From Folioceros fuciformis (lineage: Eukaryota), in assembly GCA_049999805.1 (NCBI GenBank), contig JBNGIO010004087.1, positions 1-51,648 on the forward strand: DNA of 51,648 nt, read 5' to 3'. Position numbers and translations under genes: made by a program. Of this stretch, positions 8,485 to 48,300 are shown piece after piece; position 1 is the first letter of the stretch, and the number at the start of each line of letters is the position of its first letter. The notes under the pieces are model-generated. The model worked only from the letters and a program-made list of their open reading frames with translations. It did no database searches and had not been told where the DNA came from.

Positions 8485-10770
8485 TCATGGTCGACCCTTA
8501 CAACTGCAACGACCCGCTTCAAATCGATGCACACGGTACCCATCCCTTACGACTATCTCTCTCTTTTCAACCCTTGACATGATCTCCGTTGAACTGTGGC
8601 AGTCACTGCACATGCGTAGATTCTTTGTTACCAACAAAGGAGTGCCACTTGGAGTGTTCAAGAGACCAAACGCCAGAGCTAGCTTCTCTGCATGACCGCA
8701 AAGCACGTCTTCCTTTTCCTTCTCCGAAAGTGGCTTCAACACCAACTTTGTCTGTGGTACATGGCCCCCTTCTTCCTTGAGACGTGCATTCATCCTCTCA
8801 ACTTTGAACGAAGGATCGTCTAAGTTTCCACCTACCATAAATGTATGTAACTGCCTATTCACCTCAATGCCCGCCACAGCAGGTTTCTTGCTAGCTCCTG
8901 CTACCATTCTCTGCACTTCAATCCTCTCTACATCCGTCCACATACCTGCATCTGCATAAACATTAGCCATTAGCACATATGCGGACGCCTGCTGGGGGTC
9001 CAATCTAACCAGACTTTGGAAACACCGCGTCGCTCTCTCTACATCTCCATGACTCTTACAGGCATTCAACAACGATATCAACCCCACAACATTGCTTTGG
9101 CTCTCACAAGACAACAGCATGCTTTCTGCCTCATCGAGATGGCCTGCGCGTCCAAGAAGGTCAATCATGCAATTGTAATGCTCAACCGTGGGTTTGATGC
9201 CATGCTGTTCAAGCATGGAATCAAAATGCTTACAGCCTTCATCTACCAGCCCATCATGACTGCATGCTACTAAAAGGTTCGTAAATGTAGCTTCATTGGG
9301 TTGAACACCAGCAACTAACATTTCCCCAAAACAAGCTACCGCGTTGTGACCTTCATCACAAGCACCGCACCCAGCGATCAGGGCCGTCCATGTCACCACA
9401 TCCTTTGTGGCCAAGCTGTCAAAAACCCGGCGTGCATCTTCCAGTTCGCCACATTTTGCATACATGTCAATCAGGCAGGTACCCAACAATACGTTATGCA
9501 GCTGTCCTCTTTCCACAATCTGCGAGTGCAGCTGCCTGCCATTCTGTAAGGCTCCAGCACTTGCGCAAGCCCTCAGAAGAGAAGCAAAAGTGACATGATC
9601 AGCCACAATCAGGCCCCCTTGCTCCATTCGTCCATACAGGGCAAGCGCCTCCTGATTAAACCCATGATCTGCATACCCAGCGATCAAGGCATTCCATGTC
9701 ACCACATCCTTTCTAGTCAAGCTGTCAAAAACCCGGCGTGCATATTCCACTGCCCCACATTTCGCATACATGTGGACCAGGGAATTGCCAACGAACAAGT
9801 CAGGAGGAACACCACTGTGCATCACATCAGAGTGCACTTTTCTGCCAGATTCCATGTCGGAGGCAAACGCACAAGCTTGAATGGCAGCTACAAAGACATG
9901 AGCATCCGCCTTCACACCTGAGCTGCGCATCTCATGGTACAGTTGTATGGCCTCCTTTGGTTTCCCATGTTTGGAATATGCAGAGATTATGGAGGACCAC
10001 ATGAAGGCATCTGGTTTGAGCACCCTGGTGAACACATCCATGGCATCTTCCACCCTACCTGCACATGCATACATGCGCAAAATATGGTTCCCCAAGTATG
10101 TGTTTGATTCATATCCAAGTTTTACAACAAGATCATGAACTCGTCGCCCCACAACCAGGTCCTTCTTAGCTGAACACAGTTTTAGCACTTTGTAAAATAG
10201 AGACTGAGAAATTGGACAGTCTGTCTGCGCAAGAAATTCCAGGAATGTAACGGCCTCAGTAAGCTTCCCCTGCCGACATAAGGTGCTCACCTTCAGAGCC
10301 GCTACTCCCATTTCCGATCCAGCACCCCTGCCTAGCTCAGGCTTATCCAAAACGCTCGACTTGCAGGGAGATGCACCGTGACCCATTTCCAAATCCAAAA
10401 ATACTAGCTGCTCATCCACCCAAGCTGGCCTGGAAATGTTGTCAAGCCAGAGGACCTCGCCAGTCATCTTACGCCTAAAGTCAGGGGACCGGAAACTCTT
10501 CTTATCTCGTCTGTTATCCCACCACATGGAGGGGTCCAAAAAAAAATTTCGCCACAACAGTTCCTGCTCGTGGCGACCACCATCGCTGGAAAATCGCTCC
10601 CCAGTGATGCGCTTCCCCGGAGTTGCTGGGTCTCTAACTTGAGTCCGCCTCAGTGTTTGGTTGTTTGTGGCATCACTCCCGCAGGTAACGAGAGGGGTGG
10701 CTGGTGGAAGCACCGAACACCTACCAACTTGTTGCGCCCACGACGGATCCAGTTGCAACACTTTGGCCAT
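8485..10770 (-). CDS. PLS-class PPR protein with N-terminal OSB-type PDF motif, E1/E2 and DYW:KP (GRP-type) deaminase-fold domain; putative organellar U-to-C editing factor
   Basis: Uninterrupted ~761-aa ORF: PDF motif W..FF.DP..WWDNR..K....PDF..K.TGE.LWL....P.WV, about 12 P/L/S repeats, E1, E2, KKPAVAGIEV box, HAEKLA, CSDC, C-terminus CSCKGRP. A further 5' exon at about 11180-10986 (donor GTAGGA, acceptor near 10789) is possible. Confidence 0.93.
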   Translation of the reverse strand: MAKVLQLDPSWAQQVGRCSVLPPATPLVTCGSDATNNQTLRRTQVRDPATPGKRITGERFSSDGGRHEQELLWRNFFLDPSMWWDNRRDKKSFRSPDFRRKMTGEVLWLDNISRPAWVDEQLVFLDLEMGHGASPCKSSVLDKPELGRGAGSEMGVAALKVSTLCRQGKLTEAVTFLEFLAQTDCPISQSLFYKVLKLCSAKKDLVVGRRVHDLVVKLGYESNTYLGNHILRMYACAGRVEDAMDVFTRVLKPDAFMWSSIISAYSKHGKPKEAIQLYHEMRSSGVKADAHVFVAAIQACAFASDMESGRKVHSDVMHSGVPPDLFVGNSLVHMYAKCGAVEYARRVFDSLTRKDVVTWNALIAGYADHGFNQEALALYGRMEQGGLIVADHVTFASLLRACASAGALQNGRQLHSQIVERGQLHNVLLGTCLIDMYAKCGELEDARRVFDSLATKDVVTWTALIAGCGACDEGHNAVACFGEMLVAGVQPNEATFTNLLVACSHDGLVDEGCKHFDSMLEQHGIKPTVEHYNCMIDLLGRAGHLDEAESMLLSCESQSNVVGLISLLNACKSHGDVERATRCFQSLVRLDPQQASAYVLMANVYADAGMWTDVERIEVQRMVAGASKKPAVAGIEVNRQLHTFMVGGNLDDPSFKVERMNARLKEEGGHVPQTKLVLKPLSEKEKEDVLCGHAEKLALAFGLLNTPSGTPLLVTKNLRMCSDCHSSTEIMSRVEKREIVVRDGYRVHRFEAGRCSCKGRP

Positions 10771-13822: not shown

Positions 13823-15386
13823 ATGGCGGACTCCGACTCCTTCTTCGACGCTCAGGCCCGCATCTTCTCCCGCATCAAGTGAGTGCTGCGGAGTGACACC
13901 GTCGCTGAATTTGTGGCTCGCTTGGCGATGCCTCGCATCGGGTGCTTGTGGCTGATGCGCGTGGGTGTGGAATGTGGGAGCTGAGCGATTTTGTTGTGGT
14001 GGAACGCAGGGCGGCCCCCCATCTGCAGGAGGTGGCAGCGAAGAAGCTTCTGGCAGTCGCAGAGAGCCTTGAGGCGGAGACTGCCTCGGCCCCCGCGGAA
14101 ACCGAATCCGTCGGCAAGCACCCGATCGGGGACCTGGCGGAGGCCTTCAACAAGTTCAAGATCGACAAGTTTTCGTAAGTCGTATTGTCCTGCAAGTTCC
14201 AGTACTTGGATTTGATGTGGGGTGGCGTTGCCAGCACAGCTGGTGGATCGTCAGCTGGTGACTCATCAGCTAGCTGCCCTTGGACTTGCCGGTGTTGCTG
14301 TGTCCTTTCAGGAAGGAGGAAAGGTACCAGACATTGAAGAGGGGGCAGTGGCCCAAGGTAAGAAGCTGCATCTAAGTACACCTCGATACCATACGGGAGG
14401 GGAGTGTCCTAAACACTCGGTTCGGTTGTACTTGTCTATCTGCCTGCAGTTCATGATCATCACGTGCGCAGACTCCCGAGTGGCCCCTGCCACCGTCCTG
14501 GGGCTGGAGCCTGGAGAAGCTTTCGTCATCCGCAACGTCGCGAACTTGGTTCCCGCTTACGAGAAGGTGTGTGTGACAGGCCTCCCACGCTGCCGCAATT
14601 TAGCGAAGGCTAGCCCTCTGCTTCCTTTCCTTGTCTCACACGAACGAGCTTTGATGGATGGCTGGCTTTTGCAGGGCGGGTACCCCAGCGTCGGGTCTGC
14701 TCTCGAGTATGCTGTCAAGCACCTCAAGGTAAGAACAGTCCACGAATGCCATCGGCCTCGTCTCTATGCGCTTGCTGCTGATCCTTCTCCCCCTCCCCCT
14801 CCTCCTGTTATTCCTGCTATCAATCTGCAGGTGAAGAACATCATAGTGAACGGACATCACAGCTGTGGAGGCATTGCCAATCTTTTGCACACGCAGGGAG
14901 GCAAGGCCAACTGCAAGTAAGTGTTGTTGCTTTCAGCCCAGTCGACTGACGATGCTTCCAACGCCAGAGTATTTGCTCTCGCTGACATATGGCCTGCTGG
15001 TGCACCAGTCACGAATTCGTTGAGGATTGGACCAACATTGCCGCCGACGTCTACACCAAGACGGAGGCGGAGCTCAAGGATGCTCCCGCGGATGAGAAGC
15101 TGCGCTTCGCCGAACGGGTGGGTATCAGTACCAGAAGCAGTACGATTAGATATCATAAGGTCGCGGCTGCCTTCTCATCTCAAGATCCTATCGCATGGCC
15201 TTGTCTTGTGTTTGGCAGGAAGCGGTCAATCTGTCACTCGCCAACGTGCTCACTTACCCATTTGCTGCCAAGGCTGTCGAAGACGGCAGTGTAACGCTTC
15301 ACGGTGCTTACTACGACTTCGTGAACGGAGTTTACGAGCACTGGGACTTCGTGAATGGCAAGCCTGGACCCAAGCAAATTCTATAG
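13823..15386 (+). CDS. Beta-class carbonic anhydrase, 8 coding exons from the ATG at 13823; an N-terminal extension is possible
   Basis: Spliced motifs GQWPK, FMIITCADSRV, GEAFVIRNVANLVP, SALEYAVKHLKVKNIIVNGHHSCGGI and EAVNLSLANVLTYPF..LHGAYYDFVNG; Zn ligands C-x-D-S-R and H-x-x-C intact; GT-AG introns. Confidence 0.95.
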
Positions 15387-19282: not shown

Positions 19283-21413
19283 TCAGCAGATAAGTCGCCT
19301 CCTGGCCTTCGTGTGTTTGGCCATCTCCAGACGCATTCTCTTGCACAGCTTCTCCAGCTCATCAACCCTGGATTGAACTTGCCTCAAATTGAGCCTCAAG
19401 TCGTCATTTTGCTGACATACGTCCCTCATGTTTGTGGACTCTGCACCTCCGTCTGCGAGAAAGTTACCAGAATCGAAAATCTTGCCCACCAATCCGCCGC
19501 TGTTGCTCCGAGCCGCCTTTTTCTTCTTCCTCGTGTAAACAGCTGCAACTGCTGACCTCAGCTGAATCTGTTGTGCCAGTAATACTTGCAAACTCACACA
19601 AGGCGGAAATGTTTTGTTCTTGGTAAGGTGCTTGCAAGTATCCATGGACAGCTTCTGATAGTTGAGGACCCCGCACAGGCTCACTGCTTCGGACTCATCA
19701 ACGTTAGGATGGGCCTGCAAAAAAATATAGGAAGACTAGCCGTCAGCAGAGAACTTCAACAAGATGCTGTACACGAAGTTTTGAAAAGAACTTTCCGACC
19801 AGAATTTTCTGAACTGGTCGGCAGAATTGACAGGATGGTGGTAAGAAGAAACATCACCTCGAGATAGATATCGATAGCTCTGTACAGTCCATCATGACTA
19901 CACCTGGCAAAGTCTGGAAGCGCTCCAGCAAGTGCTTCAAACTTGGCGGCTTTCAGGTGCACGTCCGCAGCGATTTCACTCAAGTATTTGTCCAGAAGAT
20001 CCCCCACCGCGTACAAGGCCTTCTGCACTCCGAAGGGACCAATATTTTCATCCAACATCCTGGAACCGTCCTTGTGGGTGTCGAACAACCAAGCAAGGAA
20101 GCCATGTTCCTGCTTCTTCTCAGCAGCCAGCATGGAGGCTTCCAGGAGAGCCTCCCGATCCTTGAGGAAACAATCCACCAATCGCAAGACCAGGTCCACG
20201 TCATACAGGGGCGCACAATTGCGCGGGGGGAGCGTAGGGACCAGAATGTTGTCGAGGGTGGCCGCATCCAACTGAGACCCAATCTTGAGCTCGAGCTGCT
20301 TTCTGCAAGCGTCGTTGGCATCCAGCACAAAAGCCACCCTGAGTAGCCCAAAGAGAGTCTTACAGGAGGTAGATCCCTCCTCCAGAGACGAGAGCAAGCT
20401 GACCACAATTTCCAAAATGTCGCACTGTACTCCCTGGGAGTAGCTAGGCATCATAGGTAGCTCTTCCGTGGGGGTCTTCTTCTTGGGAGATGGGCAGAGG
20501 GATCCGCTGAAGGCAACGAGCGGAGAAACCGAGTTGCATCCGAGCACAGGCAAAGACTTGCGAATGTAGTGGAGGAGAAATCTGGAGAGCAGCTTGTGAT
20601 CCACCCGGTAGGCAGCGAGCACTTTCACCACTTTCTCCACCACATAAACTGGCAAGGAGCACAAATCCTGAAACCACCAGTACTTCTTGGGAGCGAGGGA
20701 ACCGAAGCTGCTATCGCTTGCGGTTGACATGCGGTGAGAGTCGAACGACTTGTGAGAAGCCGTGGGGCTGGTGTTCCCAGGACCTCCGGAACCAGCTCCG
20801 AAGGCAGCGGAAGCCTCCACAATCTTTGTGGCCAAGGACTCCACGCATCTTTGCACCAGCGGCGCGCTCTCGGGAAAGGAGAGGAGAGATTCGCAGCTCC
20901 TGAGCACCGTGACGCTCTCGTGCCAGCTCATCACCACGACGTTCTTGAGAAAAGATTCCGTCCTCCTGAGCAGATTGGCCTTCCCCTGTTCCTCCGTCAT
21001 ATCCAGCACCTCAGCGATGCAGCGCAGGCGCGCCACATTCGCGGAGGTGATGACAATGTCCCCGTTGCTGTAACAAAACCTAGTGGCGAGCTCAAACGCC
21101 TCCGGTCCTCCGGGGACATTGTCCAGGGCAATGAGGACAGGATCCGGCAATCCCGCGACGGAGCTGGTTCTGTCCGCCTTGCACGAGGTCCTGACGAGCC
21201 TGAGGAGCAGCGCACTGCGGTGAAGAAGATCCTGCAACGACAGAGCAAGGCCGTGAGCCAAACAACCCCACTGACAGGGCCCGACCTCAGGATCCCGGGC
21301 GCGCGCAAGCACGCCCGGCACACAGCACCAAGTGTCATCCATAATGTTACCGAGTTGAGAAAGAATGTCTCCTCCCCGTTGATCTGAATCTGAAGGTCGC
21401 AAACATAGGCCAT
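19283..21413 (-). CDS. NPH3/RPT2-like BTB-POZ protein, 3 exons
   Basis: Exons 21413-21351, 21231-19858, 19714-19283. Motifs CDLQIQING, PGGPEAFELATRFCY, WWFQDL, IGSQLDAATLDNILVP, YDVDLVLRL, DKYLSEIAAD, HDGLYRAIDIYLEAHP and a C-terminal coiled coil. Confidence 0.93.
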
Positions 21414-42316: not shown

Positions 42317-45300
42317 ATGCAGACACAGGCTCAGGTTCCTGGGCAGGCACCTAACCAGGCAACTCGTGTGCAACAGAACGCAAGTTCTGTCTTGTCTCAG
42401 AGTGGGAATGTTGTGGGCAGCTTTAAAAAGGCTTGGCATACGGAGCAGGATGTTTCGCTGCGCCGAGGTGTTTGTGAACAGATGTAAGCACATAGTCTCT
42501 CTCATCCAGCATGTGTGATGACAGGACTTATTTGAAGTAGCTCAGACTCATCGGATGCAGAGCCTGGCTGAGGCTGTTTGATATTTCCTGAGATTTCAAA
42601 TGGCAGTGGTTGTTTGACACATCTAGCCTTTGCTCCCATGCAACAAGATTTCTGTAGTGGTTGTTGTATCTTAATGTGATGCCCCTGTTTGTTAGCAGCA
42701 ATGTAGTTCGATTGTCCTCACCTTGGGTTTTGCTGGTTGTGAAACAGTCTCCAGCTATTTAAGAAACGGAAACCAATCGTGACCTCTGACTTCCAACAGA
42801 AGCTACCAGATTTTGTGAAACGCCTGGAGGAGGCCTTGTATCTCAATGCCGGATCAAAGGTACGGCCCTGTCAAGTGATCAGGACAGAGACTTCCATGTT
42901 TCTCTTTCCTTTGGCCTTTAACTGTTTTCCTTGTCTCATTGTGCAGGAGGAGTACTCAGACATAAACACGCTGGAGACGCGACTTCACGCTGTGGCACAA
43001 AGCTTTCCAGCTAAGACCCAGCATCTGCCTAATATGGTACCTAATCCAGCCAGTGCAAGCACCATGATGCCAACCCCTGGGACAACTATGATGCCAACCC
43101 CAGGCGGTGGCACTGTGATGATGTCTGGTGGAAACGGGCTAAATTCATTGCAGGCACCAGGGAACGGACATGTTTTGTCTGCAATAGGGTCTGGAGGCTC
43201 CAAAGTCGCTACCTCAGGGTCAGGGGGTTTGATGATGCCCACTCCTGGTATAGGTTCCATGATGCAAACTGCAGGTAATGGCACTGTGATGCAAGCAGGG
43301 AATACTGTTATCCAGTCTCCTGGAGGTATTGGAGGTTTGGTGCAAGGGGGTAATATGGGTGCACCTGTGCATTCAAATAACCTCAGTACAGGTGCTATGA
43401 GCAAGATGATGCAAGCAACAGGTCACGGAAATAGCATGTTTTCTAATGCTGGAAGCACCATCCTGTCAAATTCTGGTCACCCAAACTCTCTGACCAGCCA
43501 GCAAGTTTACAGTGGCATGAGGATTGCCCCGACCCAAGTTGCACCAGGAATGAGTATGCCCCAGACAGGCAGTCAAATGATTCCCACACCAGGTTTAACG
43601 GGCTCCCAGTCTGTGTCCCCTTCTGTTGGTGGATTGACCATGGCTAACTCAGGGTCCCAGCAGCATTACACTGCACCATCGTCACAGGCATATCGAACTT
43701 TGAATGGGCAGCTGCCATCGAATGTGAATGGTAGCCTGCAACGAAAGAACTCGCTGGGAGTTCCTGGAATGAACAGTGGCGTCCAGATGATGCCCAATGG
43801 ACAGCACTTAAGTCTAGGTGCAAATGTGCATAATGCTGCTGGCTACGTAAATGCAGGGCAGTTCAGCAATATGTCATCCCAGCAGCAGCCAGTTCGCGTT
43901 GCTCAACAGCGCCAATCACAACTACGACTGCCAGGTTCTTTCTCTTTCAGTATGATTGAGTGAGTGATCACGTTATTTGCTTAAATCTACATTGTCTGAC
44001 TCTGACCAATCATGCAGGTAATGGATATTCCATGAATCATTCAGACATGAATGGGTCAGGCGGTTTGTTTCCTGGCACTCCATCCTCCGGCTTAGTTGGA
44101 GGGAACATGAACCTTTCATCAATGGTGTCGCAACCATCAAAGATGATACCAGTACCTGGCTTGCCTCAACAGCAGGGAATTCTTCAACAGCAGTTACAGC
44201 AACCTCAGCCCCAGCCCCAGCAGCCGCACATCCAGGCAACTAGTATGCAACAGAATATTGGTGGGATGAACAGGGGCCAGCAGCTACCTTTGCAGATGTC
44301 CAAGAGTCAGGGAATGTTTCAACAGGTATCAACAGTTTCAGGGCAAAAGCAGGGTGGGCTGATGGATCAGTCACAGCAGTCCATGGCATTTCAACAAGCT
44401 TCATCTGACCAACATCATCCTCCCCGTGGACAGATGCCTTTGTCGCAATCCCAGCCATTGCAACCGCTTCAGCACCAGGGCATGCAGCAGAACATGAGTC
44501 AACATTTGCAACTGAGGCAGCTACAACAGCCACGGCTCCAACAGCAGCTGCAGGCTCAGCAGCAGCACCAGCAGCAACAGCTTCCTCAAGTACAGGCACA
44601 GCATCCGGCAATCTCATCACAGCAGCAACAGTCTGTGCCTGTTCAGCCAACACAAGGCCAGTCGCAGATCCATCAGCAATCACAACAGGCACAGTCTCTT
44701 CCTCAGCTGCCAGCAGAGCACCAGCAGTCACAGCAAACGCAGGTGCCGCAGTCTCTGATTGCACATCCAACCCTTGCACAACGTCCTTTACGGCAGAGCC
44801 AGCGTTCCTTCGCTCAAGGGCACCAAGTACTGCAGCGGCAGCACATTTTGCAAGACGGAGGACAGCTGCAGCAGTCGCACGTGCAGCTACAGCAGCCAGT
44901 GTCATCATCAAGTATGATGATGACACCTGGCGATGAGAATATGAATGATGATGGGAGTGGCTCTGTTAGTGTCAATGAGAGTGTGGGCGGAAGTGTGAAT
45001 GGCAATGGTGACGGAATCGGAAGTAGTTCTGGGATCGGAAGTAGTTCTGGGAATGGCAATGGCAATGTTAATGGTAGTTTTAACGCCAGTACCAACACAC
45101 CTGAACCTGGACCTGAACCTGGAACTGGAACTGGAACTGGGCCTGGATCTGGGCCTGGATCTGGACCTGGATCTGGACCTGGCCCTGGGCCTGGCAATGA
45201 AAATGTCCACCCAGTTCCAGGACCTGATGTGCGAGATCAGCGAACACTACAGTACACCAAGCAAAGAAAATGGCTCCTGTTCTTGCGCCATGCTAGCAAG

Positions 45301-48300
45301 TGCCAGGCTCCTGAAGGGCTATGCCCAACAACTCCACATTGCCATGTTGCCCGGCAACTGTGGGCACATCTCTGCTCTTGCCGACTTGAGCGGGACTGCA
45401 CGTACACAAGGTGCACTGCGTCCAGGACCTTGGTTCGCCATTATCAGCAGTGCAGGGAGCCACGGTGTCCTGTGTGTGCTCCTGTCCGGCAGTATCTTCA
45501 ATCACAACCCAGGCCTCAGTCCTCTGGACAGGTGCAACTAGGGCAAAATCAGGCTTCTTTGTCGTCTCCCCAAACTCCGGGACAGGTTACTGTGGGATCC
45601 CCTTCTATGGCTGTCACGTCCGCAGGGTCAATTCCTCTCACAAGCCTTCCTCCAGTGTCACCACAAGTTGGAACTGCAACACAAGGTGTGGACATCGATG
45701 GTCCACCACCTGCTAAGCGGGTGAAGGTCGAATCCCCAGGGATACAGCACCAGTTAGGTCCTTCTAGCAAGCAGGTACTGACAGCTTCGAATCTGCTGAA
45801 CCCTGTGCCACGTTCTCAAGGTGTGAAGCTGGAAGGAAATCCATCTATGAAGACAGATCTGGGACCACTTTCACTGCGAGCAGACTCCCACGTGGGTAAT
45901 GCACAGCGGCAAAAACAGCCAAGTAGTCTTGGGCCTAAGCCTGATTCTGAAAGTACAAGTACATCTGGAACTCAACTGGTTAATATAAAAGCAGAGCCAG
46001 GCAGTGTGTTTGTGAAGCAACCGCAAGGAGCTCCAACAGCCCCAGCCACTCAAGTGGCACCTGCCAACTCTGTAAAATCAGGGAAACCGAAAATTGTCGG
46101 TACTTCTTTGACTGAACTATTTACACCCGAACAGATCAAGGAGCACATAGCAGGTTTACGACAATGGGTTGGCCAGGTAAGGCCCACGCTCTCCCTTTTC
46201 TTGAAGCTGGAAACCACTTTCAATGCTTACCCCCAAATAAGCTCTACAAAAGTGGGTTCCTTCGGGTCTTTACTGTGCCTGGTGGTTGAAATGCAGAGTA
46301 AGGCAAAGGCAGAAAAAAATCAAGCAATGGAGCAGAAGATGACCGAGAATTCATGTCACCTTTGTGCAGTGGAGAAGCTGACTTTCGAGCCCCCTCCAAT
46401 TTATTGTACAGCATGTGGTGTCCGCATTAAGCGGAACAGCAGCTACTACACGTTATCAGCCGGAGAGACTAAGCACTACTGTTGTACAGCTTGCCACAAT
46501 GAATGTCGGACTGAAAATGTTGAGTTGGATGGTATTAGCTATCCAAAAATAAAACTTGAGAGACGAAAAAATGATGAGGAAACTGAGGAAGCAGTAAGCA
46601 CAGTTAACAGATCAATGTGTATTGTAATACCGTATGACATGTCGTCAATTTTAATATGCTTGCACGTATTGATACCTTTCGTTGGTTTGTTGTTGATTGT
46701 GCAGTGGGTGCAATGTGACAGTTGCAATTTATGGCAACATCAAGTTTGTGCTCTTTTCAATGGTCGCCGGAATGAAGGAGGTGACGCAGAATACATATGT
46801 CCTCAGTGCTTGTCAAGTCAAATGGAAAACGGGGATAGAAAGCCCTTGCCACCATCTGCTGTTCTTGGTGCAAAGGACATGCCGAAGACTTTTCTTAGTG
46901 ATCATCTTGAGAGCAGGTTAGCAAGGAAACTTGATGAGGAGCGTCAGGAGCGTGCTAGATTTGCTGGCAAGTCCAAAGAGGAGGTAATTTTTTTTTTTAA
47001 ACATCTATTCTAGATACGAATTGCTGCCACAAGGAGAAGATGCAATTTGAAAGCGTATTGTCTTGAGAGTATTGAGGTTTCTGACTTCTAAGATGTTGCA
47101 TTTTGTGTTACTTGCTTGGCTAATCAGGTTCCTGGAGCAGAAGCTTTAGTTGTCAGAGTTGTTTCTTGCGTGGACAAGAAGCTAGAAGTTAAACAGCGGT
47201 TCTTGGAGATGTTCCAAGATGAAGACTACCCCTCGGAGTTTCCCTACAAGTCAAAGGTCAGCGTGTGGCAATAATGCCCGTATCACTCATTCTGGACCAG
47301 GAAATCATTTATCCATGCCTTGACGTTTCTCCGTTGTGATGTATCCTGATCCCCTAGTTTTGTGTGCAGGTGATTCTACTTTTTCAAAAGATTGAAGGGG
47401 TCGAGGTTTGCTTGTTTGGCATGTACGTACAGGAGTTTGGGGCGGACTGTGCACACCCCAATCAGAGGCGAGTGTATCTTTCGTACCTCGACTCTGTTAA
47501 GTACTTCAGACCAGATGTGAAAACAGTGACAGGCGAAGCACTTCGAACGTTTGTCTACCATGAAATATTGGTGAGTGTTTGTACATCATATGTGAGCTAT
47601 TCTCACGCTCTGAGTGTGACAATCTGATGTCAACCGTGGTGTGCAGATAGGGTACCTAGAGCATTGTAAAAGGCGTGGGTTCAGTAGTTGTTATATCTGG
47701 GCCTGCCCTCCTCTTAAAGGAGAAGATTACATTCTCTACTGCCATCCTGAGATTCAAAAGACACCGAAGTCTGATAAGCTTCGAGAGTGGTAAGCCTTTG
47801 TAGTCTGCAGTCAGTGTTCCACTCGACTTCATGCCTTCAGTTCGCTAACTAATTGACCTTATGCCATCAGGTACCTGACCATGCTGAAAAAAGCAGCTCA
47901 TGAATCAATTGTTGTGGAGGTCACAAACCTGTACGACTATTTCTTTGTTTCACAAGGAGAAACTAAGGCCAAGGTTACTGCTGCAAGATTGCCATACTTT
48001 GATGGGGATTACTGGCCTGGAGCTGCCGAAGACATGATCCTGCAGCTTCAGCAAGAGGAGGAAGATGGGCGCAGACTGCAAAAAAAGGGCAAACCTAGGA
48101 AGATGACAACTACGAAGCGGAACGCAAAAGTTGGTGGTCAGGCTGAACTGCCTAGCAATGCTTCTGACGACACTCGGCTAATGCATAAGGTAATGCTTTC
48201 ATTCCCATCGTCTCGATAAAACTTCGTGAAATTTGGTATGGTATCTGTCATGGGGTGTCATCTAGACCTGCCTCATCTCTCTGCGATATTGACACTGATC

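Follow-up and report, generated by a model that had tools for sequence, protein, structure and literature searches.

What does a motif of the single-stranded DNA-binding proteins of organelles (OSB proteins) do at the front of an RNA-editing factor? The question is raised by a gene of Folioceros fuciformis on contig JBNGIO010004087.1 (assembly GCA_049999805.1), of which the window, that is, the whole stretch of DNA analysed, covers positions 1 to 51,648 of the forward strand (51,648 nucleotides). On the minus strand, positions 8485..10770 form an intronless open reading frame (ORF), P0001, which encodes 761 aa and a stop codon. From the N-terminus, the protein comprises a tail, a PDF motif, an array of PLS-type PPR motifs, E1/E2 motifs and a DYW:KP domain. 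The initial annotation of this DNA had recognized an OSB-type PDF motif in the frame of the PPR array and the DYW:KP domain, had presented the protein as a singular chimera, and knew of no functional description of such an architecture.

Because Pfam contains no PDF model, the identity of the motif was tested through its database relatives. A phmmer search with residues 60-130 against 1.84 billion representative sequences returned 629 matches at E<=1e-3, of which 173 reached E<=1e-10 and 18 reached E<=1e-30. Several matched stretches were present in many of the best 150 of these 629 matches; 45 of the 150 contained a Pfam SSB domain and 8 contained PPR families. Sampled SSB-bearing clusters were named 'protein OSB1, mitochondrial-like' (Populus), 'organellar single-stranded DNA binding protein 3' (Euphorbia) and 'protein OSB3' (Lupinus). 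An OSB-only PDF profile was built from the PDF stretches of 80 SSB-like proteins among 140 non-PPR matches, with the window's own sequence left out. This profile, with positions 2-57 of its 57 aligned, matched residues 70-126 of P0001 (10393..10563, minus strand) at 74.6 bits (E 1.1e-25 when a single target is considered), as compared with 9.5 bits for the best of 2000 shuffles of residues 1-150, and 4.7 bits for the runner-up among 1056 six-frame peptides of the window.

All of the columns that are invariant in a 53-row alignment of the motif (A4; W, P, D, R, K, D, F) are kept in P0001, which would not be expected of an untranslated or useless stretch. The PDF motif has been defined as about 50 residues with a conserved Pro-Asp-Phe signature (PMC6963530), and in P0001 this signature falls at residues 96-98, inside the 57-residue match. 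Nothing scored among the 5 candidates of a word-indexed protein search with residues 60-130, and the ESM Atlas gave no usable match. The profile comparison confirms residues 70-126 as a genuine OSB-type PDF motif at the level of sequence; binding of single-stranded DNA (ssDNA) would be ascribed to it by likeness to the OSB motifs. The motif call of the initial annotation was thereby borne out, and its quoted peptide is exact. On the minus strand its positions, 10405-10554, encode residues 73-122, the core of the motif, and not residues ~74-123 as it had stated.

Among the database relatives, PDF motifs were also seen in long arrays. P0002 from Kingdonia uniflora, which has a weak SSB match, contains 13 matched PDF stretches in 1160 aa, and P0017, an unnamed ENA protein of 1920 aa, contains 21. 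OSBs are described as having one to five copies, a number that both proteins far exceed. PDF motifs were further found inside proteins annotated as kinesin (Coptis) or 'interactor of constitutive active ROPs' (Striga) (P0046, P0036), which are probably gene models merging an OSB gene with its neighbor.

Translation and Pfam place the PDF motif, PPR array, E motif and DYW domain of P0001 in one uninterrupted ORF of the raw sequence, as the initial annotation had claimed, with an in-frame stop 31 codons upstream of the first ATG. The window holds 100 N, none of them inside this ORF. A Pfam scan of P0001 placed the best stretch of none of the 25 families listed before residue 163, and gave no SSB match at E<=1. 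An exact 457-nt contig from an independent public run, the kind of which is unrecorded, covers 10069-10525 and runs from the PPR motifs into the PDF motif. This contig supports the assembly, and not transcription. Contig cover of the locus was seen up to about 10649 only and was fragmentary, and it was not used as evidence. Summed contig depth in the bin 10462-10555, at the PDF core, ranged from 1148 to 39999, as compared with 26 to 1515 in the two flanking bins, in 4/4 runs. The excess hints at many PDF-encoding paralogues in the organisms of those runs, which it would fit, with summed depth being no copy number.

Downstream of the PDF motif, P0001 has the layout of a PLS-class PPR-DYW protein, with a PPR array, then E1/E2 and finally a DYW deaminase containing HxE...CxxC. 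The PLS-type array spans residues 152-560 (9091..10317, minus strand) and forms 12 helix hairpins (Pfam PPR/PPR_1/PPR_2, with E 5.6e-57 for PPR; helix pairs 152-182 to 529-554 predicted by AlphaFold2, AF2). The E1/E2 motifs occupy residues 561-628 (8887..9090, minus strand; Pfam E_motif at residues 574-636, E 2.9e-16; AF2 hairpins 561-590 and 595-624), and the deaminase-like domain occupies residues 629-761 (8488..8886, minus strand; Pfam DYW_deaminase at residues 669-759, E 3.7e-34). The first box of this domain reads KKPAVAG, the catalytic motifs read HAE...CSDCH, and the C-terminus reads GRP. In published descriptions, the KP subclass is recognized by KP in the first box and alanine in HxE, together with C-terminal triplets that vary, and GRP and DRH are the two hornwort variants (PMC9478123, PMC11845758). 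A conserved lysine at domain position 88 serves as a criterion of the GRP variant of DYW:KP. Counting the last 133 residues of P0001 as the domain places position 88 at K716, in our own numbering, which is not aligned to the published domains; K716 is invariant across 10 aligned KP relatives. The nearest relatives of P0001 are contig-derived proteins with 49-60% identity that end in GRP, DRH, DRP or DAH. The KKPAVAG box, HAE...CSDCH and GRP end therefore show P0001 to be a PLS-class PPR editing factor of the GRP-type DYW:KP, as judged by its motifs, and U-to-C editing of organelle transcripts, so far shown for designer proteins only, would be expected of it. A hornwort is accordingly the most likely source of the window.

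We examined how widely a PDF motif is joined to a PPR array. The PPR part of P0001 was matched by 10 of the best 150 PDF matches; the eight of these that are named come from Diphasiastrum, Selaginella, Adiantum, Pteridium and Sphagnum, and both Pteridium entries are ORFs taken from transcriptome contigs on which the PDF motif and the start of the PPR array lie together. None of these first ten was found to have a DYW domain (0/9 by phmmer, 0/7 by Pfam), and an E motif was present in 2/7; DYW-bearing members surfaced only in later searches. Applied to the best 120 full-length homologues of P0001, the OSB-only profile detected an N-terminal PDF motif in 28, in 1-3 copies. These 28 belong to a liverwort, mosses, lycophytes and ferns, and include one Ceratodon and two Calypogeia proteins. 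A search seeded with a Calypogeia PDF motif and limited to proteins of 629-2002 aa returned 30 proteins, mostly from Sphagnum species, all of which contained PPR families (30/30) and 21 of which contained the DYW family.

The domain combinations were counted in a pool of 331 fetched proteins, which was gathered in a biased way, so that the counts are not natural frequencies: 74 combined PDF and PPR, 96 combined PDF and SSB, and 0 had both partners. The absence of an SSB domain from all of the 74 PDF+PPR proteins indicates that they are not mis-fused OSB genes. They carry one (61 proteins), two (10) or three (3) PDF copies, and in 74/74 the first PDF motif starts upstream of the first PPR envelope. 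No seed plant is among the named PDF-PPR proteins found, which do not constitute a census, and none of the 8 gymnosperm homologues listed among the best 120 is among the PDF-bearing ones.

The PDF motif is not tied to the DYW:KP type. Among the best 120 homologues, it was present in 16 of the 76 with a DYW region. Thirteen of these 16 have PG-type boxes (12 ending in DYW, 1 in DSW) and three are KP (two GRP, one DRH), and of the 60 DYW homologues without a PDF motif we read at least 22 as KP-like. A further 12 of the 28 PDF-bearing homologues lack any DYW domain. The PDF-PPR layout is thus shown to be an old, recurrent architecture of seedless land plants, which occurs with a PG-type, a KP-type or no DYW domain. 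Neither the singular chimera of the initial annotation nor the enrichment in DYW:KP that it had raised survives these counts.

Among the KP-type relatives themselves, the motif appears in several states. P0264, the closest PDF-bearing relative of P0001, has an eroded motif that scores 45.6 bits, with several invariant positions altered. In P0253, a KP-type protein ending in DAH (alignment A5), residues ~20-75 hold a PDF vestige only, with a DPSQWW-like start and an unrecognizable remainder. Read from the alignments, these two cases suggest repeated decay of the PDF module in hornwort-type paralogues.

Trees of the PDF motif were built from 56 columns. PPR-linked motifs clustered strongly: the PPR/OSB label required 6 changes on the tree, as compared with about 56 when the labels were shuffled (0/500 shuffles as low). 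In a thinned set, all 27 PPR-linked rows fell in one 39-row group together with 12 OSB rows (SH-like approximate likelihood-ratio test, SH-aLRT, 84); near-copies inflate the clustering of PPR-linked motifs. The trees would fit one or a few ancient fusions, and cannot settle between one origin and several.

We searched the published literature for descriptions of this architecture. None was found in the openly available main texts, in agreement with the initial annotation. Neither 'OSB' nor 'PDF' occurs in the main text of a survey from 2026 on domain fusions among editing factors (PMC13386178), and a 2026 study of the OSB family contains neither 'PPR' nor 'pentatricopeptide' (PMC13393729). PDF-PPR proteins of seedless plants make up a broad class that is apparently undescribed so far.

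The structure of P0001 was predicted with AF2, using a 67-row alignment for the full-length protein and a 53-row alignment for a PDF-only model of residues 60-135. The full-length model had a mean predicted local distance difference test score (pLDDT) of 86.2, with the PPR/DYW body mostly >90. Residues 1-61 and 132-151 had pLDDT <50, and the PDF motif had 10-residue block means of 71-93. The PDF-only model had a mean pLDDT of 89.4 and consisted of a long helix and another helix, with short strands between the two. AF2 delimits the folded module as residues 62-131 (10378-10587, minus strand), separated from the first PPR motif by residues 132-151 (10318..10377, minus strand). With its block means standing between flanks of pLDDT <50, and with the high score of the PDF-only model, the PDF motif looks autonomous on a flexible tether, and is predicted to fold on its own, as a small helix-strands-helix module held by a flexible linker of 20 residues. 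Weak CP29 matches of phmmer against PDB sequences (E 0.035 or worse) were taken as chance. A prediction of a PDF homodimer returned no answer (score 0.02, mark 0.32) and is evidence neither way.

We consider it somewhat probable that the PDF motif survives import and adds, where the PPR footprint has its 5' edge, a second site that binds single strands independently of sequence, with RNA favored. Residues 1-61 (10588..10770, minus strand) form a disordered tail with 8 K/R vs 4 D/E and 11 S/T, as counted on the translation, and are presumed to be an organelle transit peptide, so that the PDF motif would stay on the mature organellar protein and there may bind single-stranded nucleic acid. A PPR array runs parallel to the RNA that it binds, its N-terminal motif sitting on the 5' nucleotide. 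Given this polarity, the PDF motif would lie at the footprint's 5' edge, some 16 nucleotides or more upstream of the U that is edited. It could there give a firmer grip on, or a quicker capture of, the single-stranded transcript, a role that we prefer over DNA binding, and would be an accessory outside catalysis. The designer GRP-type proteins KP2 and KP3 carried out U-to-C editing of about 26% and 22% in E. coli without a PDF motif (PMC9478123). The motif is therefore no part of the catalytic requirement, which fits an accessory role.

A number of observations weigh against this proposal. According to reviews, the PDF motif of AtOSB1 alone suffices for ssDNA binding (PMC6963530), and OSB1 and OSB2 prefer ssDNA over dsDNA or RNA (PMC4166229); this preference favors a tether to DNA over RNA binding. 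A Foldseek search of the PDF-only model against the PDB found no solved analogue (best E 4.4, TM 0.24), and the structure thus provides no independent support for nucleic-acid binding. The transit peptide may be cleaved downstream of the PDF motif. None of the public runs on record as RNA contained the locus. Lastly, among the 10 aligned closest KP-type proteins, the PDF motif was present in 4 (one eroded), a vestige in 1 and absent from 5, some of which may be truncated ORF calls; the motif is dispensable in close relatives.

The best-surviving alternative, which was the main idea of the initial annotation and which we nevertheless regard as rather unlikely, is that the PDF motif keeps the ssDNA preference of OSBs and tethers the editor to nucleoid ssDNA, such as transcription bubbles, displaced R-loop strands or replication intermediates, for co-transcriptional editing. 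The sufficiency of the AtOSB1 motif for ssDNA binding (PMC6963530) and the preference of OSB1 and OSB2 for ssDNA over RNA (PMC4166229) speak for it, as do the effect of OSB1 on R-loop levels in Arabidopsis mitochondria (PMC8330923) and the retention of all invariant PDF residues in P0001. However, PPR editing factors, the GRP-type designs among them, need no such tether to edit free transcripts in E. coli and human cells (PMC9478123), and many close paralogues lack the PDF motif.

It is improbable that the PDF motif of P0001 is a functionless inherited relic, or is removed with the presequence at import. The erosion in P0264 (45.6 bits, with changed invariant positions), the vestige in P0253 and the lack of the motif in other close paralogues are what a relic would lead one to expect, and a start at residue 70 is within the range of long transit peptides. 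Against this, the motif of P0001 has every invariant residue and scores 74.6 bits, on par with OSB motifs. A confidently folded domain would also be unusual in a cleaved presequence, and the PDF motif has been kept across liverworts, mosses, lycophytes, ferns and hornwort-type proteins, a retention that argues for selection.

Slightly less probable still is a protein-protein or intramolecular module, acting in oligomerization, in partner recruitment, or as a built-in stand-in for the MORF/RIP co-factors, which the 2026 survey treats for seed plants only (PMC13386178). AtOSB2 is reported to be tetrameric (PMC6963530), all of the named PDF-PPR proteins found are from seedless plants, and 0/8 of the gymnosperm homologues listed carry a PDF motif. 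However, the tetramer of OSB2 may rest on another part than the PDF motif, the absence from seed plants is no census, and contact with a partner is purely hypothetical here.

The remaining explanation is that the resemblance arose by chance, or that an error of assembly or annotation joined an OSB fragment to a PPR gene. It draws on the mis-fused look of some database PDF entries (the kinesin and ROP-interactor annotations) and is effectively refuted by the uninterrupted ORF in the raw sequence, the profile statistics, which exclude chance (74.6 vs 9.5 bits for the best shuffle), the exact 457-nt contig of an independent public run across 10069-10525, the lack of an SSB domain in all of the 74 PDF+PPR proteins, and the recurrence of the layout across many genomes.

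A wider proposal can be made, of which we are rather doubtful: that a sizeable class of seedless-plant PLS editors, both C-to-U and U-to-C, docks on the ssDNA of active organelle nucleoids via the N-terminal PDF motif, with editing coupled to transcription, or, equivalently, that the PDF motif is a cis-acting precursor of a helper role that seed plants later transferred to trans-acting co-factors such as MORF.

Elsewhere in the window, an ORF fragment at 14453-14920 (plus strand) matched Pfam Pro_CA (beta-carbonic anhydrase, E 3.1e-22); the gene is evidently split, with this fragment as one of its exon regions. An NPH3-family ORF lies at 19756-21342 (minus strand, E 4.4e-59), and a long ORF at 44032-47013 (plus strand) encodes a TAZ zinc finger and a PHD finger. 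These neighboring ORFs are ordinary plant nuclear genes.

The PDF motif has hitherto been a hallmark of OSB DNA-maintenance proteins, and its presence as a regular N-terminal module on editing PPRs of bryophytes, lycophytes and ferns and in a hornwort-type gene widens its remit. PDF-PPR proteins provide a concrete handle on editing in plants that lack the seed-plant helper proteins. The editing assays already available in E. coli and human cells would allow the effect of the motif to be tested directly, and because the designer GRP-type U-to-C editors reach only about 22-26% without it (PMC9478123), its effect on efficiency or specificity is of practical interest.

Comparison of P0001 with the OSB proteins (Arabidopsis OSB1-4) shows that they share the PDF motif of ~50 aa, with its invariant W/P/WWDNR/K/PDF/LW/P-W pattern, and that both are plant-specific and presumably organellar. 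In the OSB proteins, an SSB-like OB fold occupies the center and one to several PDF motifs follow on its C-terminal side, whereas P0001 lacks an SSB domain and has its PDF motif N-terminal to the PPR array. The role of the OSB proteins is in the surveillance of mitochondrial DNA recombination, and not in RNA editing.

With the hornwort GRP-variant DYW:KP factors, on which the designer KP2 and KP3 are based, P0001 shares the PLS array, E1/E2, KP box, HAE, CxDCH and C-terminal GRP. In contrast to P0001, the GRP-variant factors and designs are described as a transit peptide and a PPR array, with no N-terminal PDF motif mentioned in the available part of that report (PMC9478123). Closest in layout are the PDF-PLS-(E)-(DYW:PG) proteins of Diphasiastrum, Sphagnum, Ceratodon and Calypogeia, which have an N-terminal PDF motif directly before the PPR array. 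The PDF motifs form a cluster in the tree, and the database names of these proteins are 'hypothetical protein' or 'PPR-containing protein'. Unlike P0001, they mostly have a canonical PG-type (C-to-U) DYW domain or none, and some have 2-3 PDF motifs and longer arrays. Domain fusions are common among editing factors (PMC13386178). The PPR-SMR and PPR-RRM fusions, MORF/RIP, ORRM and OZ resemble P0001 in that extra nucleic-acid-binding or helper modules are joined to the PPR machinery, but these modules are unrelated in sequence to the PDF motif.

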